This document shows positions 10,383 to 38,439 of a stretch of 38,439 nucleotides of DNA, in pieces. Below the pieces are notes generated by a model. It was not told the origin of the DNA. It saw only the letters and a list, made by a program, of their open reading frames with translations, and searched no databases. The stretch covers positions 1-38,439 of the forward strand of contig JAZDCY010000055.1 in NCBI GenBank assembly GCA_036679645.1. The letters run 5' to 3'. Source of the DNA: Gemmatimonadota bacterium (lineage in GTDB: Bacteria; Gemmatimonadota; Gemmatimonadetes; Gemmatimonadales; GWC2-71-9). Position 1 is the first letter of the stretch. The number at the start of each line of letters is the position of its first letter. The position numbers and the translations under genes were made by a program.

Positions 10383-13300
10383 TCATCGTGCACGGCCTTG
10401 GATGATGACGAATTTTCCCCGCGCCCGTAGCGCGCGGCTGGCCGTGTTGCCCGGTTCGACCGACGTCGTCACCACCCACACATAGAGCCCGGACGCCATT
10501 TGGAGCTGCTCCCGCGTGATGAGCGGCACGTGCAGGTCGCCTGCTCCCTGAAGGTCGTCGGGCCCCCACACGACCTGTGACGCGAACTGGCCGCTCACCG
10601 TGTAGATGCGCAGCGTCCCCGCAGGCGGCATGTTCGTGAAGACCACCTGCGGATTGTTAAAGCTTGCTTGATACTGGGAGAACAGTACGAACGGGTTCGG
10701 TACGACACGGATGTTGTGTAGGGCGGAATCGGTGACTGCGGTAATCGCGGCGCCACGTGCCGGTCCGACGATCTCGAACCGATACTGCGCATCCGGTGTG
10801 AATCCCGTCTCGTATTCCCACAGCAGCCGGTCTCCGGTGGAAGACGGGAGATAGCCCGTGGCGCCGCGCGACCCGAACGCAACGGGGTTGCATGCCGGCG
10901 AGCGGGGGCGCGCACATCCCAGCACCGCTTGCTCAAACGTCATGCGCCGCCGCGTGACCCGGGCGGGTTGACCATTCGCGTCAAGCACGATGTATCCGTT
11001 GGCGTCGACGGAGTCCTCGAGCACGGGCTCGATGAAGGTCAGCCGGTCACCGGCGACCCACGCGTCACGTGGAATGGAGACGGTCATCGTGTCGCCGCCG
11101 GTGCCCAACATGTATGTGTTGCTGAGCCGAGGAAGCATGGCGATCTCGACACGCCGATTGAAACTGATGTTGCGGATCCGGAAGGGCGCCGTTATCGGAA
11201 TCAACAGGCTCGGTTCCACGTCCAGCGTGGCCGCGGTGGCCCTGTCGGTCGCGCCGACTGTCGTGCGCGGTCTGGCCGCGAGCGCTGCCTGGAACTCGGC
11301 CGCGGTGGCCGCTGGGTTGGTCATGTTCAGGACGATCCCGTTGGGCAACCCAAACGGATCACTCGTCCACGTCAATTGGTACCGGCCGAGCGGCGTCTGT
11401 GTAGCTGATGCAATCAGACTCAACTGTGGCTGCCACCTGACCAGCAACGAATCGGCGGTGGCGCGGCTCACGGTGTCGCGTGTTGTGCCGAGCCGCTGCT
11501 TCGTGATATCCCCGCGCAGGCTGACGTGGGCGTCGGGGTTGAACGCGCCGGCGTCGTTGTTGTCCGCAATGACGAAAAATCCGGGGTCGATTTCAGCGCC
11601 GAGCAGTTCGTCTGGCGTAGCCGCCAGTCCGGCGAGTTCCACGCTGGCGAACACTGGTGCACCCGCCCCATCCACGATCACGAAGCCGAGTCGGTCGTTG
11701 TACTCGTCGATCAACTGGATGCCTATCCCCACGCTCTTGGCGCCCGATGTCGATGGCGAGCCCGCGACCGGGACGAGCATTCCGCTGAGGCGCGTAAACT
11801 GCTCCCGGCGAAGAGCGACCGGTGCGCCAAACGGCGATGCATCTACGACATGCTCGATCGTCACGGTTGTGCGGACGGCCGCTGCCTGGTTGGGGAGACT
11901 GTCACGGGTCACAATCAGATGGTTGCCGAAGACGGCGCGATACCGGCCGGGGATCACCCGGTCGGTGAGTTCGATGTCGAACGGTGCGGTGACGTTGGGC
12001 GGTCGGGCCAGAAACTCGACTCGCGCAGCCGTTCCACCAGCCTCGCGGCTGATAGGGACGTACACGGTGGCAGCGTAGCCGGCGTTGGCCGTTGCGGCCA
12101 GCCGCGACCGCATCGCGGGGGCAAATGTCCTGACTTCTGGTCCGGTTGCGGTTTCCACCAGGAACTCGGCGCCGCGCGTCTTTGCTACCAGGACGTACGT
12201 GTAGCTCCGGCCCGGCAGGACGTTGGGATCGGTGAATCGATTCGGCAGATTCGTCTCCACCGAATCCGCAAAGAAGCTGCCGTAGGCCCGCCACCCGGTG
12301 CCCACGGTTTCGCCGTAGGTGCCAACGGTACGATCACCGTTGCAATCTGAGTCTCCCGTATAGGTTCGCCCGCCGTCGCAAGATTTGTAGATCTCGATGA
12401 CCTCGATATTGTCACGGGCGCGGTCGCGCAGGGAATCTGGTAGCCATGTGTTGAGCGCGACGAGATCTCCCAAGGGCCCGGGCGGTGCCGGATCCATGTC
12501 GTCTGCCAGCCCGAGCAGGAATTCGTCCTCCCAGTTCTCCGTCCGGGCGTCGAACAGCAGCGTGACGCTCGGCTCTCCCGGGCTTGACGTGAGGTTGGCG
12601 ATGATGCGTGGCGCAGGCGGCACCCGCGGGCGCGGGAAGAACTTGAGGTACGTACCGATAGCGGACGCAATCGCGGACCATGTGGAAACGGAATCCCGCT
12701 GACCCACGAACGCTACGAACCAGCTCGTCGTATCCCCCGCCGCCAGCGCGAACGGGCCTGCGGCGAGTACGCCGCCCACGTTTCCGTACACATTCACCTG
12801 CCCGCCGGGCAACGTGTCCCAGTCCGTCGTGACGCATCCGTTGACGTGACACGTGTCGTACCAAAGCGTGTCCGGGAAGCCGTCGTGGTTGAAGTCCCAT
12901 TCGGCGGCCGGGGGACCTGTGCCGTCGCGGCCGGGAACCCAATGATTGAACACGCCGGTCTCGGCGGGATAGCCAAAATTGCGAAAGGTGCGAAATGCCT
13001 CCGAGCCGCTCAAGGAGCCCGGATCCCTTCCGTCCATTACGATATTCGCTTGCGAGGCGATCATCCCGAAACTGCGTTTGTCGCTTACGTTGTGGGTGCT
13101 GGCCCAGCATCCGCCGAACCCACACATGTGCCCGTGGTTGAACGTGATCGTATCACCCGCCGGCGGATGGGACGGGTCGCAGAAGGGGTCCACAACCATC
13201 TGGCACGGTTGGCCGTCGGCCCTGCGGGTGAGCAGCTTGTTGCGCAGATCACCGATTGGGCTCTTCAGGACGATGATGGCGTTGCCACCGTTTCCGTACC

Positions 13301-14471
13301 CGCGCCCGCCGCCGCCGCCCGGGGTGCAGGCAGTTGCACCGGCCGGAATGCGAAAACTGTCAGAGCAGGGGCCGCCCAGGCCCTGCGTGTTGCTTTGATG
13401 GAAGAGGGCCGTTGAAACGTGAGGCAGGTAATAGTTGGAAAAGCGCGACCCACCGCCCACACCGGAGCCACCGGTTCCCTCCATGAATCCCAGATACAAC
13501 GAGTCGTAATCAATACCCGTCCCGTATACGTCCTCAGATCGGTTGATGACGGTCGCGCGCCAAAACACTACACCCAGGAGGGATGGGTCGAGAAAACTGA
13601 ACACCTCGAAGCGCCACACCAAACCCAGAGGGTAGCCGCCCCACTTCGGCGCTCCATCCCCACCAGGAATGACGGCGCCGTATTCCGCGAGGATAAGCGT
13701 GCCGAGGTAGGGATCGTCTACTTTGAGCGAATCAGGAATGCGCCAGAAATCGAAGGCGAACCCCGGTCCCATGGAGGTGAACTCGCGGAGGTAAGCGTCG
13801 CGAGGTGCGGCCCGGTCTCCGCGCCATTCACCTCCTCCCCAGGTCTCGATGCACTCGGCGAGTGCGAGGAGGGGCAGGCCGACCGGATAGAACCCCAGAT
13901 CGAAACCCGTGTTGTCGAGGCAAGTCCCATCATTCGTGGAGACGACGCCGGAAAACAGACTACCCAACGTCCCGTCCCGGGGCCCCCACTCGTGCTGCGG
14001 TCGAAACAGGGCGAAGTTCGTGAGGGTCGTGTACCCGCCACCCACCGCGTTGGCTACGCTCGGCGCGACCTCCCGGATCTTCAACCATTCACTCGGAGGT
14101 GCTCCCGCGTAGTACAGAACCTCGAAGAACTGAAACGTTACGGCGAGCGGATTCCGCGAGGGGTGCAGGTTCCAAGAGCAAAAGCCGGTGAGGGGCGCGT
14201 CACAGGGGCTGTAGTTGTCGACACTGTAGGACAGGTCACCGGTGCCCATGCCTGCGCCGGCTGCATCGGCATTCGCGAATAGCCTGAAGCCGCGTGCGAG
14301 ACGGGCCTGCGTGACGTTGTAGTCCGGCGTCTCGGGGTCGCCGGCCGACTCGAGAATTACGTCGCGGCCATCTTCTCGATACTGCGCGGTGGCGACCTGG
14401 GCGGTGCACGCCAATGCAACGAGGGTGAGCACCGCAGCGGACGAGTAACGCCTCTGACAGTCAGGGTCCAT
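10383..14471 (-). CDS. Large secreted protein with T9SS-sorting-like C-terminal domain
   Basis: Signal peptide; paired Cys; DFNHDG Ca-loop; Asp-box SCDGGRTY; FN3-like segment; tail IRVVPNPF..FTNMP..LRIYTVSG..ASGLYVW..GKFVII. Confidence 0.75.
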   Translation of the reverse strand: MDPDCQRRYSSAAVLTLVALACTAQVATAQYREDGRDVILESAGDPETPDYNVTQARLARGFRLFANADAAGAGMGTGDLSYSVDNYSPCDAPLTGFCSWNLHPSRNPLAVTFQFFEVLYYAGAPPSEWLKIREVAPSVANAVGGGYTTLTNFALFRPQHEWGPRDGTLGSLFSGVVSTNDGTCLDNTGFDLGFYPVGLPLLALAECIETWGGGEWRGDRAAPRDAYLREFTSMGPGFAFDFWRIPDSLKVDDPYLGTLILAEYGAVIPGGDGAPKWGGYPLGLVWRFEVFSFLDPSLLGVVFWRATVINRSEDVYGTGIDYDSLYLGFMEGTGGSGVGGGSRFSNYYLPHVSTALFHQSNTQGLGGPCSDSFRIPAGATACTPGGGGGRGYGNGGNAIIVLKSPIGDLRNKLLTRRADGQPCQMVVDPFCDPSHPPAGDTITFNHGHMCGFGGCWASTHNVSDKRSFGMIASQANIVMDGRDPGSLSGSEAFRTFRNFGYPAETGVFNHWVPGRDGTGPPAAEWDFNHDGFPDTLWYDTCHVNGCVTTDWDTLPGGQVNVYGNVGGVLAAGPFALAAGDTTSWFVAFVGQRDSVSTWSAIASAIGTYLKFFPRPRVPPAPRIIANLTSSPGEPSVTLLFDARTENWEDEFLLGLADDMDPAPPGPLGDLVALNTWLPDSLRDRARDNIEVIEIYKSCDGGRTYTGDSDCNGDRTVGTYGETVGTGWRAYGSFFADSVETNLPNRFTDPNVLPGRSYTYVLVAKTRGAEFLVETATGPEVRTFAPAMRSRLAATANAGYAATVYVPISREAGGTAARVEFLARPPNVTAPFDIELTDRVIPGRYRAVFGNHLIVTRDSLPNQAAAVRTTVTIEHVVDASPFGAPVALRREQFTRLSGMLVPVAGSPSTSGAKSVGIGIQLIDEYNDRLGFVIVDGAGAPVFASVELAGLAATPDELLGAEIDPGFFVIADNNDAGAFNPDAHVSLRGDITKQRLGTTRDTVSRATADSLLVRWQPQLSLIASATQTPLGRYQLTWTSDPFGLPNGIVLNMTNPAATAAEFQAALAARPRTTVGATDRATAATLDVEPSLLIPITAPFRIRNISFNRRVEIAMLPRLSNTYMLGTGGDTMTVSIPRDAWVAGDRLTFIEPVLEDSVDANGYIVLDANGQPARVTRRRMTFEQAVLGCARPRSPACNPVAFGSRGATGYLPSSTGDRLLWEYETGFTPDAQYRFEIVGPARGAAITAVTDSALHNIRVVPNPFVLFSQYQASFNNPQVVFTNMPPAGTLRIYTVSGQFASQVVWGPDDLQGAGDLHVPLITREQLQMASGLYVWVVTTSVEPGNTASRALRARGKFVIIQGRAR

Positions 14472-25293: not shown

Positions 25294-26975
25294 ATGACCC
25301 CACTCATCGAGTGCGTCCCGAACTTCAGTGAGGGACGCGACCTCAGTGTTATCAAGCAGATCACCGACAGCATCGAGGCAGTCGATGGAGTGAAACTGCT
25401 CGATGTCGATGCCGGACGGGCCACGAATCGCACGGTGGTCACGTTCGTCGGCGCTCCGGACCCCGTGATGGAGGCAGCTTTCCGGGCCGTTGCACAAGCT
25501 GCCACGCTGATCGACATGCGAAACCACACGGGCGAGCATCCTCGCTTTGGGGCTACCGACGTGTGCCCGCTCGTCCCGGTTGCTGGGATCTCGATGGATG
25601 AGGCGGATCGGAGCTGGGGATTCCGGTTTACCTGTATGAGCAGGCGGCGTTGCGTGCCGAGCGCAGCAACCTCGCCGTCGTGCGTGCGGGCGAATACGAA
25701 GGGTTGAGAGACAAGGTCGCGCGTTCGGAGGGAAAGCCAGATTTCGGACCCGGGACCTTCAACGCGAAGAGCGGTGCCACGGCGGTGGGGGCGCGTGACT
25801 TTCTGGTGGCGTACAACATAAACCTCAACACAACCTCCACCCGCCGGGCCAACGCCATTGCGTTCGATGTCCGGGAGAAGGGACGGATTGAGCGTGAGGG
25901 GGATTCGCTCACTGGTGAGATCGTACGTGATGCGGACGGGCAGCCCGTCTGGACGCCCGGATCCCTCGAGAGCGTCAAGGGGATCGGCTGGTACATAGAG
26001 GAATACGGTATTGCGCAGGTTTCCCTGAACCTCACGAACCTATCCGTCACGCCCATACACATCGCATTCGACGAGGTATGTGCCAAGGCGGCGGCGCGCG
26101 GCGTGCGGGTGACCGGGTCCGAACTCGTCGGACTCGTACCGCTTCAGGCTATGCTGGACGCGGGGCGCTACTTCCTGAAGAAGCAGCATCGATCGGTGGG
26201 TATCGCCGATTGGAAGATCATCAAGATTGCGGCGAGATCTCTGGGGCTCGACGATCTCTATCCGTTCAGGACCGATGAAAAGATCATCGAGTACGCCATG
26301 GCGGCCACGGATCGTTCCGAAAGCGAGGCGGCCTCGGAGCCGATCGAGCGCGGATTGGTTGGCAGGACGGTGCGTCGGTTCGTAGAGGAGACCGCGTCGG
26401 AGTCGGTAGCGCCCGGTGGTGGCTCGGTCTCGGCGGCGGTAGGCGCGCTTGGCGCGGCACTTGGCACCATGGTGGCCAACCTATCGTCACACAAACGCGG
26501 GTGGGATGAGCGGTGGGAGGAGTTTTCCAATTGGGCCGAGCGCGGGAAGCGGCTGCACGACGAGCTGCTGCGGCTCATCGATGCGGATACCGAGGCCTTC
26601 AACGAGGTGATGGCGGCTTTCAAGTTGCCCGAGGGGACCGACGAAGAGCGTTCGTCGCGCGCCGCGGCGGTGGAGGCGGCGACCAAGCGGGCGATCGAGG
26701 TGCCGCTCCTGGTGATGGAGGCTGCCCTCGCGTCGATGGAGATCACGGGGCGGATGGCCGATATCGGTTTGCCCAGCTCGGCGTCGGACGCCGGTGTGGG
26801 CGCTCTCTGTGCGCGGGCCGCCGTGCGCGGTGCGTATCTCAACGTGCGCATCAACGCGAAGGATCTCACCGATCGTGCATACGTCGACGATGTGTTGGGA
26901 CGTGGGGGGGAAATGGTCGCCCGCGCCGAAGAACTGGAGCGGGAAACGCTCGCCTTGCTGGACGGAAAGATGTGA
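25294..26975 (+). pseudogene. ftcD: Glutamate formimidoyltransferase / formiminotetrahydrofolate cyclodeaminase, disrupted near 25604
   Basis: LIECVPNFSEGRD, GEHPRFGATDVCP in the first frame; GSELGIPVYLYE, GARDFLVAYN, APGGGS, SDAGVG in a shifted frame. Confidence 0.85.
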
Positions 26976-27660: not shown

Positions 27661-29940
27661 GTGAGTTCCACGGCAAGCTGCGCGGCCTGCGGGTCCGAGG
27701 TCGATGCGGGCGCGAGATTCTGCGCCGGTTGTGGTTCTGACGTCACGGGCCAGCAGGGGGGAGTCGCTACCCAGTACGTCAAGCCGTCGTCCGCCCAGCA
27801 AGCGGAGGACCAGTTGCTCGAGACGTTGCGGAGCGCGACGCTCGGTGATTACGAGGTCCTAACCCAGTTGGGCCAGGGCGGCATGGCGACGGTGTATCTG
27901 GCCCACGACATCTCGCTCGATCGTAAGGTCGCCATCAAGGTCATGAATCCCGCCCTCGTCTCGGGCGAGGGCATGGTCGAGCGTTTCAAGCTCGAAGCCC
28001 GCACCTCCGCAGGCCTGTCTCACGCGCACATCATCCCGATCTATGCGGTAAAGGAGATGGACGATCTCCTCTTCTTCGTCATGAAGTTCATCGACGGGCG
28101 TCCGCTCGACTCGATCATCAAAGAAGCCGCCCCGCTGCCGATCCCCATGGTGCGCGCGGTGATCGCAAAGGTGGCGGAAGCACTCGGGTACGCACACCGG
28201 CGCGGGGTCGTTCATCGCGACATCAAGCCGGCCAACATCATGATCGACGCCGAGGGCGCGCCGATCGTGACGGATTTCGGCATTGCCAAGGTCGCCGACC
28301 AACAAGGGCTCACGATGACGGGTGCCACGATCGGCACGCCCACCTACATGAGTCCAGAGCAGTGCAATGCGCTCGCCATCACCGGTGCGTCAGATCAGTA
28401 CTCGCTGGGCGTGATGGCGTACGAGATGCTCACCGGAAGACCGCTCTTCGACGGCGACTCCGTGATGACCATCATGTTCAAGCACGTGCACGACGAGCCG
28501 CCGGCGCCCGATGAGTTCGGTTCGGAGGTTCCTGCCGACCTCGGCGGCGCCATCACGAAGATGCTGCAGAAGAAGCCCGAAGATCGCTGGGAGACGATGG
28601 AGGCGGCGCTTCCCAGCATCAGCGGCGGGCAGACAGCGTATGACGATTCGGCGCGCACCGCCCTGATTGAGTTTGCCAAGCACAGTGAGAATCGTGACAT
28701 CCTCGCGCGGGTCAGCACACCGCGTAGTCCAATACCGCTTTCCGCGACGGGAGCGCCAATCGATTCGGCCGAGACGGTGCGCTTCAGCTCGGGTGTCGTG
28801 ACCGGTGCCGCGCCTGGCCGGACCGTCGTCACGGCGCCCAAGAAGTCGCGCAAGGGTCTGTGGCTGGGGCTCGGCGGGCTGGTCGTAGTGGGCGCGGTCG
28901 CGGCGGCAGTGGTCCTCGGGCCGATGAGCGGGGGCCAAACCGCGCAGACCACGCAGCCCGTCGCGATCGGTGATCTTCAGCAACCCGCAGCCAATCCGAA
29001 TGCGGCGGCCACTACCGATCCCACATCAGAGCCCGCGTTGCCGACCGGACAGATCGATTCCGCGCCCACGGCCGCGGTCGATAACCAGTCTGTGAGGCCT
29101 GCGGCGGTACAAAGCGTCCGTATCGTGAGTCCCCCGGCATCGATTTTGGCTGGGCAGAGCGTGACGTTGCGTGCGACCGTCACCGATGCGAACGGCGCCG
29201 CCGTGAACCGTCGCGTGAGTTGGCAATCGTCCAACTTGGGCACGGCGCAGATCGGGGCATCCGGCGTCGTGCAGGCGATCGCGCCCGGGACGACGACTAT
29301 CTCGGCCACCGTCGACGGACGCAGTGATGATGTCCTGCTCACGGTGTCGGCCATACCGGTCGCGAGGGTGACCGTGGCACCCACCCGGCGGACGCTCGAG
29401 GTGGGTGATACGGTACAGCTCAACGCCACGCCCGCAGACCAGAGCGGGACAGCGCTCCAGAATCGTCCGGTGAACTGGTCGTCCAGTAGCAATGCGATCG
29501 CCACAGTCAGTGCCACCGGGTTGGTGCGGGCAGTCGCCGCGGGAACCGCCACGATCACGGCGACGAGCGAGGCACGCACGGCCACTGCCTCAGTGACGGT
29601 GAACGCACCGGTAGTGGCCGTGGATCATCACGTGCTCATCGAGCAGACCATTCAAGACTATGCCGATGCTCTCGAGGCCAAGGACATCGACGCGGTTCGG
29701 GTAGTGTATCCCGGACTGCCGTCCGATCGCGAAAAGCAGCTGCGCGACGCGCTGCCCGCAATGAACGATCTGCGGGTCCGCCTGTCGCTCGGAAGCATCG
29801 ATATAGACGGTAATCGCGCTTTCGTGGAAGTGACCGGGCAGTGGCTGTTCAATGCCGGTGGGAACCGGGAGCTGCCCGCCGACAACCAGTATGTGCTCGC
29901 CCGGCGCGGCGCTCGTTGGGTCATCACTGACATCAGGTAA
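27661..29940 (+). CDS. Membrane Ser/Thr protein kinase: zinc ribbon, kinase, TM, two Big_2 Ig domains, NTF2-like tail
   Basis: CAAC/CAGC; GQGGMATVY, VAIK, HRDIKPAN, DFG, GTPTYMSPEQ; TM GLWLGLGGLVVVGAVAAAVVL; VSWQSSN/VNWSSSSNAIATVS repeats. Confidence 0.93.
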   Translation: MSSTASCAACGSEVDAGARFCAGCGSDVTGQQGGVATQYVKPSSAQQAEDQLLETLRSATLGDYEVLTQLGQGGMATVYLAHDISLDRKVAIKVMNPALVSGEGMVERFKLEARTSAGLSHAHIIPIYAVKEMDDLLFFVMKFIDGRPLDSIIKEAAPLPIPMVRAVIAKVAEALGYAHRRGVVHRDIKPANIMIDAEGAPIVTDFGIAKVADQQGLTMTGATIGTPTYMSPEQCNALAITGASDQYSLGVMAYEMLTGRPLFDGDSVMTIMFKHVHDEPPAPDEFGSEVPADLGGAITKMLQKKPEDRWETMEAALPSISGGQTAYDDSARTALIEFAKHSENRDILARVSTPRSPIPLSATGAPIDSAETVRFSSGVVTGAAPGRTVVTAPKKSRKGLWLGLGGLVVVGAVAAAVVLGPMSGGQTAQTTQPVAIGDLQQPAANPNAAATTDPTSEPALPTGQIDSAPTAAVDNQSVRPAAVQSVRIVSPPASILAGQSVTLRATVTDANGAAVNRRVSWQSSNLGTAQIGASGVVQAIAPGTTTISATVDGRSDDVLLTVSAIPVARVTVAPTRRTLEVGDTVQLNATPADQSGTALQNRPVNWSSSSNAIATVSATGLVRAVAAGTATITATSEARTATASVTVNAPVVAVDHHVLIEQTIQDYADALEAKDIDAVRVVYPGLPSDREKQLRDALPAMNDLRVRLSLGSIDIDGNRAFVEVTGQWLFNAGGNRELPADNQYVLARRGARWVITDIR

Positions 29941-29944
29941 GCCT

Positions 29945-32900
29945 ATGGGACGCAAGCTTGCACTCCTGCTCGCCACGGCCACGGGCGCGATTGCCCTGGC
30001 GTCGTGTGGCGATGCACTGAAGATCGGCCCCGGTGGAGTCGTGGCTATCGTGGTCGCGCCCGACAGTGTCGCCCTCGCGGTCGGAAGCTCGATAGAACTC
30101 GACGCGGTCCCCATCGACTCCACCGGAGCGTTCCTGCAGGGCTTTCTGGTTACCTGGACCAGCAGTGCGCCTGGTGTCGCGTCGGTGGACGAGATCGGCA
30201 CCGTCACCGGCCTCGCCAGCGGATCGGCTGTCATCACGGCGACCGTCGAGGGGTTCGACGGCAACGCGAACGTCAGCGTCGACCTTGCGCCGAGTATCAG
30301 CCTCTCGATCGACACAGTCGCGTTCAGCGCCGTAGCTGGAGGGGCCGATCCCCCCTCGGACTCGGTCACTGTCGCCAACGGCGGCGGTTTCACGCTCGAC
30401 GGGATCTCCGTCTCCGCGATCACCTACGCCGATTCGATCAACGGCTGGCTTGCGGCGACCCTCGACTCCACCACAGCGCCGGCCACGCTCGTGTTGAGCG
30501 CGATCTCCACCGGGATCACCGTCGCGGCGACGTACACGGCCTCCGTCGAGATCCTCGCCGCGACCGCGAGCGCGCCAGACACCGTCGCGGTCGCGCTGGC
30601 GCTCGCGGCTGATGTGCCCGATACCGTGAGCATCAGCGCGGGCGACAATCAGGTCGGTGTAGCGGGCGGCGCGGTCACCACGCTTCCCTCCGTGCGGCTC
30701 ATCGACCAATTCGACAACCCGGTACCCGGCATCACCGTAACCTTCTCGGTCACCGGCGGGGGCGGGTCGATCACGGGTAGTGTGCAGGTGACGGACGCGC
30801 AGGGGACTGCGACGGTGGGGAGTTGGACGTTGGGGTCGGGTCTCGGAGCGCACACGCTGCAGGCACTCGTGACCGGTCTTCCGCCCATCACCTTCACCGC
30901 CACGGCGAATCCGGCACCAGCATCGGTCATCGCGGTGATTGCAGGCGACGGACAGTCGACGGTTGCCGGCACGTCGGTGCCAACCTCGCCGCAGGTTCAG
31001 GTCACCGACGCGTTCAGCAACCCGGTTGCCGGTATCGCCGTGACGTTTGCGGTGACTGCGGGCGGCGGGTCTACGGTGGGGCCGAGCCAGACGACCGATG
31101 CGAATGGCCTCGCGACGGTCGGCACATGGACGCTTGGGACGGTTGTGGGAACGAATACGCTGGACGTCACGGCGACGGGAGTTGCGGGTACGGCCACGTT
31201 TACGGCGACCGGTATCGCCGGCGCCGCGGCGCAGATCGCGTCATCCGACGGAGATGCGCAGACCGATACCGTCGCGGCGACGCTAGCCACCGCACCGGCC
31301 GTGCTCGTGACCGACCTGAACGGCAATCCCGTTGCCGGGGTGCAGGTCACCTACGCGGTAGCAACCGGTGGCGGCAGCATCTCGGCCGGTGTGCAAACGA
31401 CGGACGCCGCCGGCACGGCGACGCTCGGGAGCTGGACGCTCGGGGCCGTGGCGGGTGCCCAGTCGCTCACGGCCACCGCAGCGGGTGTCGGGATCACGGG
31501 TAACCCGGTCACCATTAGTGCCACTGCTACAGCGGGGGCCGCGTTCGCGCTTACGGTGGGTGCCGGGGACAATCAGAGTGCCACCGCCGGGACCGCGGTG
31601 GGCATCCCACCAGAAGCCGTCGCCACTGACCAGTTCGGCAATCCCATCGCAGGCGTAGCCGTCACGTTCGCCGTTACGTCGGGTGGAGGCAGCATCACCG
31701 GCCCCGCGCAAACGACCGATGTCACCGGTATGGCGCGCGTGACGAGCTGGACATTGGGCGCAGGTGTCGGCAGCAACACGCTGCAGGCGACCTCAACGCT
31801 TGGTCTGACGGGAGAGCCGGTTGTCTTTACCGCGACGGGCATTTCTGGCACGGCCACGACCATGGCGTTGGTGAGTGGTAACGCGCAGACCGACACGATT
31901 GGCGCGCCGCTGCCCACACCCTACACGGTCAGAATCACCGACACCAACGGCAACGGCGTTCCAGGTGTACCGGTGGCGTGGAACGTCACCGGCGGTGGTG
32001 GGTCGATTCCCGCAACGGCGACGACCGATGCCGCGGGCCTCGCCGTGGCGACGCACACCCTTGGGGACGTGCTCGGGCCACAGACGGTCGATGCGGCGGT
32101 GGGTGGGTTAACCGGTTCTCCCGTGATGCTCTCGTCGACCGCGACCGTTGGGAACCCCGCGACCATGTCGATGATCCCGGGGGGGAACAACCAGACGGCG
32201 GTGGTGAACACCGCAGTCGCGCTTGCCCCAGAGGTGCTGGTGGTAGACCGCGTCGGCAACACCATCTCCGGGGTGTCCGTCACGTTCTCGCCCACCGCCG
32301 GCGGAGGCAACGCCGTGGGCGGTGCGGCCACGACAGGCGTCAACGGGCAGGCCGCCGTTACCAGCTGGACGCTCGGTACTAGCGCGGGGGCGAGCAACAA
32401 CACGCTGCAGGCACTAGTGGCTGGTTCAGGCATCACCAACAATCCGTTGTCATTCCTCGCGTCGGCGACCCCGGGGGCCGTGGACCTCGCGGTGTCAACT
32501 ATTTCCGGGGGCAGTAGCACCATTACGGCGAACGACAATGCGTCCAGCACGTCGGCAGTGACCATCACGATCACCGACCAGTTCGGCAACCCGCTTGTGG
32601 GCGAAACGGTCACGTTCTCGGCGAGCGGAACGAGTAACTTCTTCTCTCCAAACACATCGGGCACGACGGCCGCTAACGGGCAGATCATCCGGGGCTTCTA
32701 TTCGACGCAAGCCGTCGGCAAGACGATCTCAGCCAGCGTGACGGGCAAAGGTGCGCTTCCGAGCACGGCGGCTGTGACCGTCAATCCGGCAGCGGCAAGC
32801 CTCAGCGCCTCGTCGATGGATGCCACAGAGCCGATCACGGCTAGCGCGGGGACTGTTCTGTCGACAGTCAGTATCACGGTTCTGGACGCTTTTCTGAATC

Positions 32901-33730
32901 CGCGCGCTGGTGATGCGGTAACGATCTCGGTCACCGGTTCGGGGAATTCCCTCAATCAACCTGGATCGACGAACGCGAGTGGCCAGACGACGGCTTCCTG
33001 GTCCTCCACGGTCGCGCAAACCAAGACTGTATCTGCGATCATCACCGGGGTAGGAACCATTCAACAGACCGATCTGGTGTTGGTGGATAATGGACCGGCC
33101 GCTTCTATCGTGCTCTCTACCGGCAGCGGTCAGACAGCCGTCGTGGGTAACGCGGTGATTACCGATCCTCGAGTTCTGGTCAGAGATGCCTTCAATAACC
33201 CCGTGGATGGTGTCTCGATAACGTTTACGGTAGCAAGTGGAGGCGGCTCGGCCACGGGCACGAGCAAGACGACGAGCACGAGCGGTTTGGCGTCTGTCAC
33301 GAGCTGGACCCTGGGCGCCTCGACCGGCATGTCGAGCACCGGCACCTTCAGCAACTCATTGCAAGCGACTGCGCCGTCCAACGTATTGTCAGGCGAGCCC
33401 GTGAGCTTTTCTGCGAGCGCAATCTATTCATACGCGACTCATGTTCAGCCCATCTGGACCTCCAACTGCAACGGTTGTCACAACTGGACCAGAGCAACCA
33501 CCCTGGGTGTGAACGCCAGTTGCGACAGCCCCAACAACAACATTTGGGACTATGTCGCGACCGGTGGGGGCACGACCGCCGAAACCCGCAGCGTGATCAT
33601 GCATCGGATGGACGGCAATACGAGTGGTATCCCCGGGTGCAATTCGGTCATGCCCCCGTCAGGCTCGATCTCGGGCACCTTCCTCACTCGGCTCCGAGCC
33701 TGGATTCGGAACGGGGCACCGAATAACTGA
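29945..33730 (+). CDS. Giant Ig-repeat lipoprotein (Big_2, BACON-like, ~9 invasin/intimin-type Big_1-like repeats) with C-terminal c-type cytochrome-like domain
   Basis: MGRK...LASC lipobox; repeats with DxxxN(P)...VTF...GGG...WTLG; tail SYATHVQPIWTSNCNGCH...VMPP...LRAWIRNGA. Confidence 0.85.
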   Translation: MGRKLALLLATATGAIALASCGDALKIGPGGVVAIVVAPDSVALAVGSSIELDAVPIDSTGAFLQGFLVTWTSSAPGVASVDEIGTVTGLASGSAVITATVEGFDGNANVSVDLAPSISLSIDTVAFSAVAGGADPPSDSVTVANGGGFTLDGISVSAITYADSINGWLAATLDSTTAPATLVLSAISTGITVAATYTASVEILAATASAPDTVAVALALAADVPDTVSISAGDNQVGVAGGAVTTLPSVRLIDQFDNPVPGITVTFSVTGGGGSITGSVQVTDAQGTATVGSWTLGSGLGAHTLQALVTGLPPITFTATANPAPASVIAVIAGDGQSTVAGTSVPTSPQVQVTDAFSNPVAGIAVTFAVTAGGGSTVGPSQTTDANGLATVGTWTLGTVVGTNTLDVTATGVAGTATFTATGIAGAAAQIASSDGDAQTDTVAATLATAPAVLVTDLNGNPVAGVQVTYAVATGGGSISAGVQTTDAAGTATLGSWTLGAVAGAQSLTATAAGVGITGNPVTISATATAGAAFALTVGAGDNQSATAGTAVGIPPEAVATDQFGNPIAGVAVTFAVTSGGGSITGPAQTTDVTGMARVTSWTLGAGVGSNTLQATSTLGLTGEPVVFTATGISGTATTMALVSGNAQTDTIGAPLPTPYTVRITDTNGNGVPGVPVAWNVTGGGGSIPATATTDAAGLAVATHTLGDVLGPQTVDAAVGGLTGSPVMLSSTATVGNPATMSMIPGGNNQTAVVNTAVALAPEVLVVDRVGNTISGVSVTFSPTAGGGNAVGGAATTGVNGQAAVTSWTLGTSAGASNNTLQALVAGSGITNNPLSFLASATPGAVDLAVSTISGGSSTITANDNASSTSAVTITITDQFGNPLVGETVTFSASGTSNFFSPNTSGTTAANGQIIRGFYSTQAVGKTISASVTGKGALPSTAAVTVNPAAASLSASSMDATEPITASAGTVLSTVSITVLDAFLNPRAGDAVTISVTGSGNSLNQPGSTNASGQTTASWSSTVAQTKTVSAIITGVGTIQQTDLVLVDNGPAASIVLSTGSGQTAVVGNAVITDPRVLVRDAFNNPVDGVSITFTVASGGGSATGTSKTTSTSGLASVTSWTLGASTGMSSTGTFSNSLQATAPSNVLSGEPVSFSASAIYSYATHVQPIWTSNCNGCHNWTRATTLGVNASCDSPNNNIWDYVATGGGTTAETRSVIMHRMDGNTSGIPGCNSVMPPSGSISGTFLTRLRAWIRNGAPNN

Positions 33731-33731
33731 A

Positions 33732-33801
33732 GAACACTGAACACTGAACACTGAACGCCGAACGTCGAACATCCAACTTCGACGTTCGAGGTTCAACGTT
33801 G
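33732..33801. repeat. Heptamer tandem array with inverted second arm
   Basis: GAACACT x3, GAACGCC, GAACGTC, GAACATC, CAACTTC, then reverse-oriented GACGTTC, GAGGTTC, AACGTTG. Confidence 0.85.
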
Positions 33802-33815
33802 CCCAGTTTCCCCCC

Positions 33816-33831
33816 TGGCACATCCCCTGCT
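33816..33831 (+). promoter_or_regulatory. Candidate sigma54 (-24/-12) promoter
   Basis: TGGCACATCCCCTGCT, GG-N10-GC, upstream of the second giant Ig gene. Confidence 0.6.
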
Positions 33832-33897
33832 TTTTGTGATGGCCTGAGACCTTCATCAGTTAGTTCTACCCCGTAACAGGCTTATTGACAACGACTT

Positions 33898-36800
33898 ATG
33901 ATCGAGCGTGAGGTTCGAAGAATTGTGACACGTCACTATCGTGGACTCGCTGCGACAGTCTTAGCCGCACTGGCGGTGCAGGCGTGCGACGACACCATCC
34001 CGCAGCTTGGCCCTGGGGTGGTCGTCGAGGTGCGGGTGAGTCCTGACACGGTTGCGCTGCGCGTCGGCGCGACGCGCACGCTGCTAGCCGTTCCGCTCGA
34101 CGCGACCGGGTCCTTGCTTCCCGGCAAGAACGTCTCGTGGTCCACCAGCGACGCAAGCATTGCTTCGGTCGACAGTAAAGGCGGCGTCACGGGGGTGAAT
34201 CCGGGCAGGGCCACGATTACGGCGATGATCGATGGCATCGAGGGAGGGGCCGAGACGGTCGTGGATCTGGCGCCGTCGATTGCGTTGTCGCGAGACAGCC
34301 TGGTGCTCACGGCGCAGGCCGGAGAGGCGGACCCACCGCCCGATACCGTCGTCATCACCAACGGCGGTGGGTTCGACCTCATCGGGCTCACCGTGGGTGC
34401 GGTCTCGTACTTCGACAGCGTCACCGGATGGCTCAATGTCACGCTCGATTCCGCCGAGGCGCCCGCCCACCTCGTGCTGAGCGCCATGACGACCTCGTTC
34501 ACCACGCCCATGGATCTGTCCGCGCGCATCGAGATCGAATCGTTCGACGCCATCAACACGCCCTTGGCGCTGATCGTTCGGCTTGCGGTCCAGCCTGGAC
34601 CGGCAGCGGGTGGGGTTGCCGTCAGCGGCAGCAGCCAAGGCGGGACAGCGGGTGGCGCCGCCGGCGATCCTCCGTCAGTGACCGTGACCGACCAATTCGG
34701 CAATGGGGTGCCGGGCATGGACGTCATCTTCACCGTGACCGGGGGTGGTGGCAGCATCACCGACAGCGTGCAGGTGACCGACCCGCAGGGCACGGCCACG
34801 GTGGGCGGTTGGGTACTCGGAAACGTGGTAGGCCCGAACACGCTCGAGGCACATTTCCCCGGCTTGTCCCTCCCGCCGATCGTGTTCAACGCCACGAGTC
34901 AGCCCGGCACGCCAACACAGATAGTCGGCAGCGCGGGAGACGGGCAGACGGCCACGGTCGGATCTGCTGTCCCGGTCGCGCCGGCTGTGACCCTGACCGA
35001 CCAGTTTGGTAACCTCGTGGAAGGGGCTACCGTCGCCTTTACCGTGGTGCAGGGTGGCGGTTCGGTGGCCGGCTCGTCGCCGCTCACCGGGACCGACGGT
35101 ACGGCAACGGTCGGATCGTGGACCCTCGGCCTGCCTGCGGGCCCGAACGGGCTGCGGGCAACGGTCGATGGCGTTGCCGACACGGTCGTGTTCGCGGCCA
35201 CCGGCGTCGCCGGGGCGGCGGACACCGTCTTCGCCTCAGCGGGAGACGGACAGTTCGCCGAGGCGGGGTCGGCGGTTGCCGTGGCACCTGCGGTGACGGT
35301 GACCGACGAGTTCGGCAACCCGGTATCCGGTGTTACGGTCACCTTCTCTATCACGTCGGGCGGTGGGGCCATCACCGACAGCGTCAAGACGACCGGGGCT
35401 GACGGGGTCGCAACGCTCGGTTCCTGGACGCTGGGAACCGCCCCCGGGGTCAATACCATCAACGTATCTGCCCCTGGTCTGCTCGGCAGCCCCGTGCCGT
35501 TCGTGGCCACCGCGACGGTAGGGGCCGCCGCAAACATCGCACTGAATGCGGGAGACAACGAGACGGCGACCGTGGGCACACCTGTGTCGCTTGCCCCGTC
35601 GGTGCTCGTCACCGACCAGTTTGGAAATCCGGCGGCAGGTGTCACGGTCACGTTCGCGGTCGCATCGGGCGGCGGGAACGTGACCGCTGCGTCCCAATCC
35701 ACCGACGCGAGCGGCATTGCGACAGTCGGGGCGTGGACGCTCGGGACGGTACCAGGGACGAACACGCTTACCGCAACCGCGGCCGGAGGCACCGTGGCGG
35801 GGAATCCCGTCACGTTCACGGCTACGGCCACGGTCGGCGCGGCGGCACAGATTGCAGCGAACGATGGAGATGGCCAGAGCAGCACCGTCGGCTCCGCGGT
35901 CGGGACGGCACCGTCGGTTTTGGTCAGCGATCAGTTCGGCAATCCCGTTGCGAGTGTGGCCGTCACCTTCGCCGTGCCGTCCGGCGGAGGGGGGGGGAGC
36001 ATCACCGGCGCGGCGCAAACCACGGACGCGGGCGGCATTGCCCGGGTCGGCACGTGGACTTTGGGTACCGCTGTGGGGACGAACACGCTGGAAGCGACGT
36101 CCACGGGATTGACCGGGAGCCCGGTGACCTTTACCGCAACCGGCACGGTCGATGTCGCGAGTGCGATCACGATGAATGCCGGCAACGGGCAGTCGGCGGA
36201 GGTCGGTACGGCCGTTCCCGTGCCGCCGTCGGTGATCGTTACGGACCAGTTCGGCAATCCCGTTGCGGGGGCGCCGGTGACGTTTGCCGTTACGGTGGGG
36301 GGCGGCGCGGTCGTTCCCACCACACCCGTCAACACCGGTGCTGACGGGGTGGCTTCCGCGACATCGTGGACGCTGGGGAACACGCCGGGCCCAAACACGC
36401 TGCAGGCGACGTCGGGCAGCCTCACGGGCAGCCCAGTGAGCTTCACGGCCACCGGCACTGCCGGTGGGGCGGCACAGGTCGCCGTGAACCAGGGTGACGG
36501 GCAGACCGCCAATGCGGGAACTGCGGTGGCCGTACCGCCGTCGGTGATTGTCACCGATCAGTTCGGCAATCCGGTGCAGGGAGCGAGCGTGACGTTCGCC
36601 GTCGCGTCCGGCGGGGGCAGCGTCAATCCCACGACCCCACTCACGACTGACGCGAGCGGTGTCGCGACCGTGACGTCGTGGACGTTGGGCACGGTCCCGG
36701 TCACGAACACACTTAGCGCCACGGTGGTTGGTGCGGGCATAACGGGCAATCCGGTCACGTTCACAGCCACGGGTATCGTTGGACCGGCGGCGAATATCGC

Positions 36801-38439
36801 GGTCAACGACGGCAACAACCAGAGCGCTCCGGTCACGACCGCCGTGACCATCGCCCCGTCGGTGGTCGTCACCGATCAGTTCGGGAACCCCGTCTCCGGA
36901 ACCGCGGTCACGTTCGGTGTGACCTCCGGGTCGGGAGTGGTCGGTCCCACGACGCCCATCACCACTGACGCGAGCGGCATCGCCCGCGTGACTTCGTGGA
37001 CGCTCGGGCCGTCGGTAGGTACCAACACGCTGCAAGCCACGACCGGCCTCGCGCTCTTTGGCGAACCGGTCACGTTCACCGCGAACGGATCGTCGGGCGC
37101 GCCCGCCACGGTCGTGATGAGTGCCGGCAATAACCAGACAGCAACTGTGGGCACCGCGGTATCCGTGGCACCCGCGGTATTGGTCACCGATGCGACATCC
37201 AATCCCGTGCAGGGCGTGACCGTGACCTTTGCTCCAGCATCGGGTGGCGGGAGCGTCACTGGTGCGGTGCAGACGACGAACGCGTCGGGAATTGCCACCG
37301 TTGCAAGCTGGACGCTGGGAACCGCCGCGGGCGCCAACTCGCTCAGCGCCACCGTCTCTGGGGCGGGCATCACGGGGAATCCGGTCCTCTTCAGTGCGAC
37401 CGCCACGGCGGGCAGCGCCACCACGATCGCGATGAACGCGGGGAACGGGCAGAGTGCTACGGTTGGTACCGCGGTTGCCGTCGCACCGTCGGCGTTCGTG
37501 TCGGATCAGTTCGGTAACCCCGTGGCGGGTGTGTCGGTCAACTTCGCGGTGACCGGCGGAGGCGGCAGCGCGCTGGGAGGGAACCAGACGACGAACGCCG
37601 GCGGTGTTGCTACCGTCACTAGCTGGACTTTGGGAAGCGTCGCGGGCGCGAATACGCTTTCAGCCACGACGGGTATTCCGCTCACCAACGAACCCCTTGC
37701 GTTCACTGCCACCGGTCTGGCTGGTGCGCCCGCCGCGCTTTCGGTGGCCGTCCAACCCTCCGCGGCGGCTCAGAGCGGTGTCAACTTCGTGCAGCAGCCC
37801 TCCGTTCAGCTGGTCGATGGATTTGGCAATGCGGTGAGCCAGGCGAGCGTCACAATCGACGCGGCGCTCGGGTCGGGTTCCGGTGGAGGCCTCGGGGGAA
37901 CCACCGCGGCTACGACTAATGCGTCGGGGCTCGCCACGTTTGTCGATCTCGCGATCACCGGGCCGGTGGGCGACTACACGCTCGACTTCACGTCAACAGG
38001 GCTCGGGGTGACGTCCTCCGGAACGATCACGCTGAGCGCCGGTGCGGCATCCACGATCGCGCTCAATACGGGTGACGGGCAGTCGGCTACCGTCAACAAC
38101 GCGGTCACCCTTGCCCCGTCCGTTTTGGTGACCGACGGTGGCGGGAACCCGGTTTCAGGGGTGAGCGTCACCTTCGGCGTGACCGCGGGTGGTGGTGGCG
38201 TGACCGGCGGGAGTGCGGCGACGACTGCGTCCGGCATTGCCACCGTCGGTAGTTGGACCCTGGGCCAGACGGCCGGCAACAATACGCTGCAAGCCACGAC
38301 CGGACTCACGCTCACGGGCGAGCCCGTGACGTTCACCGCCACCGGTGTGGCGGACGCCGCCGCGACGATTTCCATGAACGCGGGCAACAACCAGACAGCG
38401 ACCGCCGGGGCGGCTGTTGCCGTGCCACCGTCGGTTCTC
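33898..38439 (+). CDS. Second giant Ig-repeat lipoprotein, >1500 aa, truncated by the window end (absent from ORF track)
   Basis: Manual translation: ATG33898 or GTG33925, ...LAALAVQAC lipobox, Big_2, BACON-like, then ~12 repeats of ~104 aa with DQFGNP; same frame at the window end; N-terminus paralogous to 29945-33730. Confidence 0.88.
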   Translation, partial: MIEREVRRIVTRHYRGLAATVLAALAVQACDDTIPQLGPGVVVEVRVSPDTVALRVGATRTLLAVPLDATGSLLPGKNVSWSTSDASIASVDSKGGVTGVNPGRATITAMIDGIEGGAETVVDLAPSIALSRDSLVLTAQAGEADPPPDTVVITNGGGFDLIGLTVGAVSYFDSVTGWLNVTLDSAEAPAHLVLSAMTTSFTTPMDLSARIEIESFDAINTPLALIVRLAVQPGPAAGGVAVSGSSQGGTAGGAAGDPPSVTVTDQFGNGVPGMDVIFTVTGGGGSITDSVQVTDPQGTATVGGWVLGNVVGPNTLEAHFPGLSLPPIVFNATSQPGTPTQIVGSAGDGQTATVGSAVPVAPAVTLTDQFGNLVEGATVAFTVVQGGGSVAGSSPLTGTDGTATVGSWTLGLPAGPNGLRATVDGVADTVVFAATGVAGAADTVFASAGDGQFAEAGSAVAVAPAVTVTDEFGNPVSGVTVTFSITSGGGAITDSVKTTGADGVATLGSWTLGTAPGVNTINVSAPGLLGSPVPFVATATVGAAANIALNAGDNETATVGTPVSLAPSVLVTDQFGNPAAGVTVTFAVASGGGNVTAASQSTDASGIATVGAWTLGTVPGTNTLTATAAGGTVAGNPVTFTATATVGAAAQIAANDGDGQSSTVGSAVGTAPSVLVSDQFGNPVASVAVTFAVPSGGGGGSITGAAQTTDAGGIARVGTWTLGTAVGTNTLEATSTGLTGSPVTFTATGTVDVASAITMNAGNGQSAEVGTAVPVPPSVIVTDQFGNPVAGAPVTFAVTVGGGAVVPTTPVNTGADGVASATSWTLGNTPGPNTLQATSGSLTGSPVSFTATGTAGGAAQVAVNQGDGQTANAGTAVAVPPSVIVTDQFGNPVQGASVTFAVASGGGSVNPTTPLTTDASGVATVTSWTLGTVPVTNTLSATVVGAGITGNPVTFTATGIVGPAANIAVNDGNNQSAPVTTAVTIAPSVVVTDQFGNPVSGTAVTFGVTSGSGVVGPTTPITTDASGIARVTSWTLGPSVGTNTLQATTGLALFGEPVTFTANGSSGAPATVVMSAGNNQTATVGTAVSVAPAVLVTDATSNPVQGVTVTFAPASGGGSVTGAVQTTNASGIATVASWTLGTAAGANSLSATVSGAGITGNPVLFSATATAGSATTIAMNAGNGQSATVGTAVAVAPSAFVSDQFGNPVAGVSVNFAVTGGGGSALGGNQTTNAGGVATVTSWTLGSVAGANTLSATTGIPLTNEPLAFTATGLAGAPAALSVAVQPSAAAQSGVNFVQQPSVQLVDGFGNAVSQASVTIDAALGSGSGGGLGGTTAATTNASGLATFVDLAITGPVGDYTLDFTSTGLGVTSSGTITLSAGAASTIALNTGDGQSATVNNAVTLAPSVLVTDGGGNPVSGVSVTFGVTAGGGGVTGGSAATTASGIATVGSWTLGQTAGNNTLQATTGLTLTGEPVTFTATGVADAAATISMNAGNNQTATAGAAVAVPPSVL

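Follow-up and report, generated by a model that had tools for sequence, protein, structure and literature searches.

The closest solved relatives of the domain described here are cytochromes of one c-type subfamily, as judged by profile comparison: FoxE (PDB 5MAB), PccH (4RLR) and the C-terminal heme domain of hydrazine synthase alpha (5C2V), of which FoxE and PccH also resemble it in fold. All three are stand-alone or enzyme-fused, and they lack both an Ig stalk and an adjacent kinase. FoxE is described as a diheme protein with crossed Met ligation (PMC10654088). The layout QPI..CxxCH..MP..WI..GA is also found in the PSCyt1 domain (PF07635), but canonical PSCyt1 members are N-terminal in PSCyt1-PSCyt2-PSD1 proteins, whereas the Gemmatimonadota domains studied here are C-terminal and, when stalked, have an added Cys pair.

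Tethered monoheme c domains have been described in other proteins. Geobacter PgcA is, like the protein reported here, a lipoprotein with tethered monoheme c and no packed heme chain; its three hemes are joined by flexible (PT)x linkers and span about 18 nm, and it has been demonstrated to act in oxide reduction (PMC11520253). Our protein differs in having one predicted heme on a folded Ig chain and a linkage to a kinase, and it is likened to PgcA by description, not by sequence homology. The X183 domains of Cellvibrio Cbp2D and Teredinibacter TERTU_2913/3803 are tethered monoheme c domains of secreted modular proteins (PMC10916295), which combine carbohydrate-binding and redox modules with flexible linkers and match our domain only weakly in fold (Z 2.1). 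The stalk itself recalls invasin/intimin-type adhesins, with which it has Big_1 and invasin-D3 repeats in common; instead of an autotransporter barrel and a lectin-like tip, however, the protein has a lipid anchor and a heme tip.

Trans-envelope signalling by Hanks kinases is exemplified by the Pseudomonas TagQ/TagR-PpkA-PppA-Fha1 pathway, which combines an outer lipoprotein with a membrane Ser/Thr kinase. Heme, Ig stalks and COG4313 barrels are, to our knowledge, not part of this pathway. In some relatives (L007, L009), genes for PP2C and FHA proteins adjoin the kinase and are reminiscent of it; no T6SS link was seen at the loci studied here. Plugged outer-membrane barrels have been reported for COG4313 channels (PMC4493636) and FapF (PMC6173800). 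The predicted partner barrel of our locus, with a weak match to PF13557, is comparable to COG4313/SphA channels and FapF, but measures about 405 aa when mature against 270-320 aa for COG4313 (PMC4493636), and it has five conserved His and a kinase partner.

Gemmatimonadota encode many uncharacterised secreted proteins (PMC11495043), and the available part of that source does not mention a heme-tipped stalk. We found no description of the stalk-tip architecture with its kinase-barrel module in the literature searched, most subscription journals lying outside it. Here we analyse a 38,439-nt stretch of Gemmatimonadota DNA (contig JAZDCY010000055.1 of assembly GCA_036679645.1), called the window below, in which a c-type cytochrome domain had been predicted from the sequence at the tip of an invasin-like Ig stalk.

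Results

Gene and domain layout

The features of the locus are listed in Table 1. The open frame of lipoprotein 1 extends over 29852/29945-33730, with ATG 29945 as the likely start, and a comparable lipobox was found by simple pattern match in 23 of 27 relatives. Pfam recognises Big_1 in nine stretches and Big_2 once, while the second base domain of about 110 aa, presumably BACON-like, has no Pfam match; together these make 11 domains, the approximate number originally predicted. Only five Cys are present in the 1261 aa, namely Cys21 and four in the 105-aa tip, and a CxxCH motif, expected from composition 8e-5 times in such a protein, occurs once. The stalk is thus free of heme motifs, as had been claimed. 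An invasin/intimin-like type Ve autotransporter was considered for the Big_1 stalk and rejected, as Pfam found no N-terminal barrel in the same chain.

Table 1. Coordinates and predicted features of the heme-tipped stalk locus, with the evidence for each.
Feature	Position	Strand	Basis or remark
Hanks-type Ser/Thr kinase	27661..29940	+	Pfam, hydropathy, cap profile
Kinase C-terminal NTF2/SnoaL-like cap	29599-29937	+	Weak match of the cap profile to NTF2-fold structures
Heme-tipped Ig-stalk lipoprotein 1 (1261 aa)	29945..33730	+	Start 4 nt past kinase stop
Predicted lipoprotein signal peptide, lipobox LASC (Cys21)	29945..30007	+	Sequence
Conserved base: Big_2 and unclassified ~110-aa domain	30035..30610	+	Pfam (Big_2 only)
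Nine Big_1/invasin-D3-type Ig repeats, about 100-110 aa each, without Cys	30611..33412	+	Pfam
Predicted monoheme cytochrome c tip, FoxE/PccH/PSCyt1-like, 105 aa	33413..33727	+	Conservation, profile match, model, structure comparison, hhalign
CxxCH heme c attachment motif (C19, C22, H23)	33467..33481	+	Sequence, conservation
Cys37 (33521-33523) and Cys76 (33638-33640), predicted disulfide, typical of stalked tips	33521..33640	+	
Met80, predicted distal iron ligand (replaced by His in one clade and in another relative)	33650..33652	+	Conservation
Paralogous stalk lipoprotein 2 (about 3,260 aa)	33898..38439, on into contig C77	+	
Predicted COG4313-like outer-membrane barrel, 427 aa	C77:34649-35929	convergent	After lipoprotein 2

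Short GAACACT/GAACG repeats lie just past the stop of lipoprotein 1 (33731-33800) and recur on C77 after the second tip. Elsewhere in the window, a 1362-aa protein with a signal-peptide-like start has no Pfam match (10383-14471, minus strand), and a gene at 25294-26975 (plus strand), which we take to be formiminotransferase-cyclodeaminase-like, is apparently split across two overlapping frames.

The tip is a class I cytochrome c domain

The residues on which the original prediction was built, SYATHVQPIWTSN-CNGCH, VMPP, LRAWIRNGA and two more Cys, all occur in the reading frame at the C-terminal end of the ORF; the domain boundary had been put at 33422, and is moved 9 nt upstream, to about 33413. 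In 198 homologous domains, C19 is conserved in 197, C22 in 196, H23 in 197, M80 in 180 and W97 in 197, although these domains were gathered by similarity to the query and their conservation therefore leans towards the query motif. The relatives of the tip comprise 117 among 50%-identity representatives and 11 further long relatives. All 16 clear matches in named bacterial genome records are from Gemmatimonadota, and the weakest (17th) tip locus is a short protein on a Rickettsiales-labelled contig.

A profile of 54 tip sequences matched FoxE at E 4.7e-12, hydrazine synthase alpha at 1.1e-9 and PccH at 8.1e-6, followed by many class I cytochromes. Using the alignment behind this profile, AlphaFold2 gave a tip model with pLDDT 91.3 and pTM 0.84, in which H7-18 and H88-99 correspond to the N- and C-terminal helices; the single tip sequence gave no usable model (pLDDT 32.7). 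When this model was compared with 48,161 chains by VIA-align, FoxE ranked first (Z 6.7, rmsd 3.0, 86 aligned) and PccH second (Z 5.2, rmsd 3.7, 76 aligned), which we regard as middling structural support from a predicted model. Foldseek with the same pLDDT-91 model returned no match at E 0.001 or better. Pfam and NCBIfam leave the tip alone unnamed, below the Pfam cut-offs. PF07635 at E 0.01 missed both the tip and all 45 Gemmatimonadota tips; 12 of 54 relatives matched PF07635. By hhalign, the tip profile aligned with canonical PSCyt1 domains at 99.05% (E 1.9e-18, 90 columns), the template consisting of nine domains first found with the tip profile, five of them Pfam-confirmed. The cytochrome fold and the planctomycete-like layout foreseen for the last 105 aa are thus borne out by profile and model. 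The tip adds a new member to an established cytochrome subfamily; sequence and model identify it as a conserved domain of the class I cytochrome c type, for which a single bound heme c is predicted.

The heme motif is invariant in the 45 Gemmatimonadota tips when CX3CH and CX4CH variants are included. The distal loop has Met in 38 tips and His in 7, so that every tip has one or the other, and well-supported branches force at least two independent switches between them. Since the swaps occur only between two iron-ligand residues, the distal position is most simply an iron ligand, as expected from this conservation. The proposed His/Met ligation is therefore predicted for this copy, but Met is not an invariant of the family. 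With Met or His as the sixth ligand, a redox heme is more plausible than an open site for gas binding. Of 37 stalked or barrel-linked tips, 30 have the extra Cys pair at both aligned positions, compared with 0 of 8 others; as proposed, both Cys are present, and they would form a Cys37-Cys76 disulfide.

Short lipoproteins whose heme motif is CX4CH form a clade of their own and are mostly not linked to a barrel (L026, L032, L035, L040, L041, L054). In other proteins, the same heme domain is repeated like beads on a string, with eight copies in P0021 (1830 aa, also carrying fn3 domains), four in P0015 (487 aa) and five in P0081 (925 aa). These would be closer analogues of PgcA. A PgcA-type protein, with several monoheme domains on (PT)x linkers, was discarded for lipoprotein 1, which has one CxxCH and Ig repeats. 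The c-heme PAS sensors GSU0582/GSU0935 and DcrA were also set aside: they are PAS-chemoreceptor fusions, and the tip is a helical cytochrome fold on a separate lipoprotein.

Neighbouring genes and further tips in the host genome

Lipoproteins 1 and 2 lie as a pair between an NTF2-capped membrane kinase and a barrel gene. The kinase is built from an N-terminal zinc ribbon, the kinase domain, one TM helix (about residues 400-420), two Big_2 domains and the cap, whose profile weakly resembles ketosteroid-isomerase-like folds. Lipoprotein 2 runs past the end of the window, which has an exact 114-nt overlap with contig C77, and one 9,912-nt contig of run X1, possibly the sample of origin, spans 33634-38439 and reaches the second tip. 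The tips of the two lipoproteins are 87% identical, while their stalks are divergent.

The barrel protein, predicted from sequence, ends in Phe and retains its five His in 33-34 of 34 sequences. PF13557 matched weakly in two of eight scanned relatives, Atlas clusters are 25-42% PF13557, and no PDB sequence match was found.

The host genome has about 110 Pkinase matches in 4.05 Mb, many of them in tandem arrays (e.g., on C8 and C7), but the NTF2-like cap is found on only two, each at one of the two barrel genes. The second capped kinase-barrel pair (C7:15053-18943, L060) is of the Cys-less barrel subtype and has no adjoining lipoprotein; it is a natural control for the window locus. A third tip, 41% identical, is encoded on contig C15, upstream of a PEGA-type kinase, a FlgD-Ig protein and a small barrel-like gene. 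On contig C54 (3-19591, minus strand), a lipoprotein start 45% identical to the start of the heme-tip protein P0003 is followed by a frame change and a 6,170-aa open-ended ORF. The repeats of this ORF match those of the 5'-open ORF C15:9486-12041 (minus strand, L002), which ends in the third tip. C54 and C15 may thus encode a single heme-tipped protein longer than 7,000 aa; a search for an exact 80-nt overlap between them found none.

Maturation appears provided for, as CcmF, CcmC and CcmE are encoded in the host genome, and Ccm attaches heme c in the periplasm. Export options comprise three secretins and one SprA match, which could carry folded proteins out, and no dedicated export signal was found for the stalk lipoprotein. 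An Ig domain measures about 4 nm, so that about 30 domains would span over 100 nm. Because stalks of up to about 30 Ig domains are too long for a periplasm, we infer that the protein is displayed on the surface.

Linkage across Gemmatimonadota

The linkage was surveyed in 301 sampled Gemmatimonadota genomes, with a neighbour distance of 4 kb. The barrel was found in 103 of these genomes (120 loci), and the heme-domain profile in 115, a tally that includes short lipoproteins, PSCyt1 proteins and the unpublished genome G157. A search with alignment A2 was swamped by Ig repeats (277/301 genomes), and only rows reaching the tip were used. Heme-domain ORFs of at least 600 aa made up 33 of 149 listed rows; 23 were in barrel-bearing genomes, and 19 of these were less than 4 kb from the barrel. 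Among the 72 rows with ORFs below 300 aa, 34 were in barrel-bearing genomes and five of these lay within 4 kb of a barrel. As the linked loci are largely orthologous, the counts represent conserved synteny and not independent events.

The 14 long ORFs away from a barrel consist of two from the host genome, 11 that were examined and one of 906 aa in genome G224 that was left out. Nine of the 11 have the heme domain in an N-terminal or internal position and were rejected as counter-examples on account of this different architecture; all five that were scanned are PSCyt1-PSCyt2-PSD1 proteins. Another stops at a contig edge behind a capped kinase. L090, which encodes a long protein with a C-terminal tip and has neither barrel nor kinase nearby, is a true exception.

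In the reverse direction, 32 of the 120 barrel loci were picked as being without a known tip. Within 4 kb, a capped kinase was found in 27 and absent from five, and a tip was found in five. Tips adjoined 4 of 16 barrels of the subtype with an N-terminal Cys pair and 0 of 15 of the Cys-less subtype, one locus being unreadable; these subtypes were read from motifs, automatic calls being noisy. A heme-domain ORF lies within 4 kb of only 31 of the 120 barrel loci, and the tip is therefore dispensable. Kinase and barrel thus form the core, with the heme lipoprotein as an accessory at these 31 loci. Most barrel loci lack an adjoining lipoprotein, and the barrel was accordingly set aside as a dedicated exporter of the lipoprotein.

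The tip proteins range from about 200 to 3,260 aa and always have the heme domain at the C-terminus or a few residues from it, while their stalks vary (Big_1, Big_2, repeats of the unnamed base domain, Flg_new_2, Big_3_5). Short versions of about 200-230 aa stand beside the kinase-barrel pair at L044 and L073. At two loci, base-only lipoproteins of about 240 aa with neither stalk nor heme are encoded between kinase and barrel (L042:10744-11475, L047:8666-9373), which suggests that the base may engage the core without heme. The base, and not the heme, may hence be the working contact.

Immediately upstream of the kinase, at L007:1577-3971 and L009:2661-5145, are genes for an FHA-adenylate cyclase, a PP2C phosphatase and a globin (labels at L007 and for the L009 globin from Pfam), hinting at oxygen or redox signalling. 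No ORF with at least three CxxCH motifs was found in 44 tip-bearing loci, some of which cover only 3 kb or repeat one site, and there were no porin-cytochrome or quinol-oxidase genes among the neighbours in tip loci. MtrB/PioB (PF11854) was not found in the host genome, which is 92.7% complete. A porin-cytochrome electron conduit was rejected on these grounds.

Discussion

By its conserved linkage to kinase and barrel, the stalk protein is a candidate trans-envelope input module of the kinase. The idea of a sensor, raised in the original prediction, gains support from this linkage to a dedicated kinase-barrel pair. In our preferred reading, the tip is an optional, surface-displayed redox probe for an envelope-spanning kinase-barrel signalling device, with heme binding, location and partner all predicted; we give this reading a probability of roughly 45%. 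Heme would be attached by Ccm in the periplasm, with ligation by His23 and Met80 and closure of the Cys37-Cys76 disulfide, and the lipoprotein would then be moved to the outer surface. There, the heme would adopt the redox state of a contacted mineral, humic matter, oxygen or another cell. The jointed stalk would bring either its tip or its base into contact with the partner barrel. The plug of the barrel, together with the five conserved His, would relay the state inwards, and the periplasmic NTF2-like cap would read the barrel and switch phosphorylation. Redox pick-up, barrel docking and kinase switching are all steps that we infer. A difficulty for the probe reading is the distance, since a tip 40-120 nm away would somehow have to get back to its own barrel. 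More tentatively, the system may be a receptor-kinase whose heme c, borne by an exchangeable stalk at 40 to over 100 nm from the cell, senses the redox state of the surfaces or cells that it contacts and signals through the His-lined outer-membrane barrel to the Hanks kinase, with Met/His swaps tuning the response.

The Big_1/invasin-D3-type stalk is also what would be expected of an invasin-like adhesin capped by a repurposed cytochrome fold. The heme would then be structural, and the kinase-barrel pair, merely co-regulated, would sense something else, for example a hydrophobic molecule entering through the barrel and bound by the NTF2-like cap. COG4313 channels are reported to import hydrophobic molecules (PMC4493636), the cap is similar to ketosteroid-isomerase-like folds, TfcP is described as a cytochrome c unlikely to carry electrons (PMC8833165), and base-only lipoproteins occur. 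However, a structural role does not readily account for the distal Met or His in 45 of 45 tips, nor for the same heme domain on unrelated stalks and in 200-230-aa proteins, which are too short for adhesins. We therefore consider an adhesin unlikely, although it fares best among the alternatives.

That the tip is conserved while long stalks vary, and that tandem paralogues combine 87%-identical tips with divergent stalks, could also reflect contact-dependent signalling between cells. The tip would be a ligand for the barrel of a neighbouring cell, or two tips would form a FoxE-like diheme across cells, and the receiving kinase would fire. In FoxE, the distal Met of one heme is reported to come from the far C-terminal part (PMC10654088), and the tip model aligns over FoxE 37-259 in VIA-align. 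The tip is absent from most barrel loci, though, and such signalling is quite unlikely.

The location of the protein bears on a further alternative, in which the lipoprotein is a tether that stays in the periplasm and the tip reports periplasmic redox to the kinase cap or the inner face of the barrel. Heme c attachment takes place there, no dedicated export signal was found, and 200-230-aa versions stand beside the kinase-barrel pair at L044 and L073. Periplasmic c-heme sensors with redox-linked Met release are also known (PMC8396549), but they have a PAS fold fused to a receptor, unlike the tip domain. With mature lengths of up to 3,100-3,260 aa, and possibly more than 7,000 aa for the probable third member, a periplasmic location is improbable.

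We rate as equally improbable a PgcA-like tethered shuttle for respiration or iron oxidation, in which the tip would pass electrons from a solid or partner cell to the barrel, or back, in the manner of a split porin-cytochrome. The closest solved relatives of the tip are FoxE, a putative iron oxidase, and PccH; the His of the barrel are nearly invariant; and PgcA itself is described as working by tethered diffusion with mixed His/Met and His/His domains (PMC11520253). The claim that the protein cannot act as a wire stands insofar as the stalk contains no heme wire, while tethered electron shuttling of the PgcA kind is compatible with it (PMC11520253). Against a shuttle, there is one heme motif per 1,260-3,260 aa, no gene of the multiheme, porin-cytochrome or quinol-oxidase kind was found in the 44 tip loci, the host genome yielded no MtrB/PioB, and the constant partner is a kinase. 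Finally, it is very improbable that the CxxCH is a relic or a site for a metal other than heme: the tip alone falls below Pfam cut-offs and the presence of heme is predicted from sequence and model, but CxxCH (or CX3-4CH) in 45 of 45 tips, the predicted cytochrome c fold and the Ccm genes argue against it.

Surface cytochromes are usually viewed as respiratory wiring, and c-heme sensors as periplasmic receptor domains. If the probe reading is true, one heme at the end of a long stalk and connected to a Ser/Thr kinase would represent a different use, i.e., sensing outside the cell, and these bacteria would have a form of extracellular redox touch sensing by phosphorylation. The system also offers a testable handle on three little-understood subjects, namely PSCyt1-like domains, the approximately 100 Hanks kinases of one Gemmatimonadota genome, and a barrel family present in 103 of 301 sampled genomes, and both the 105-aa tip and its natural counterparts of 200-230 aa are easily expressed.
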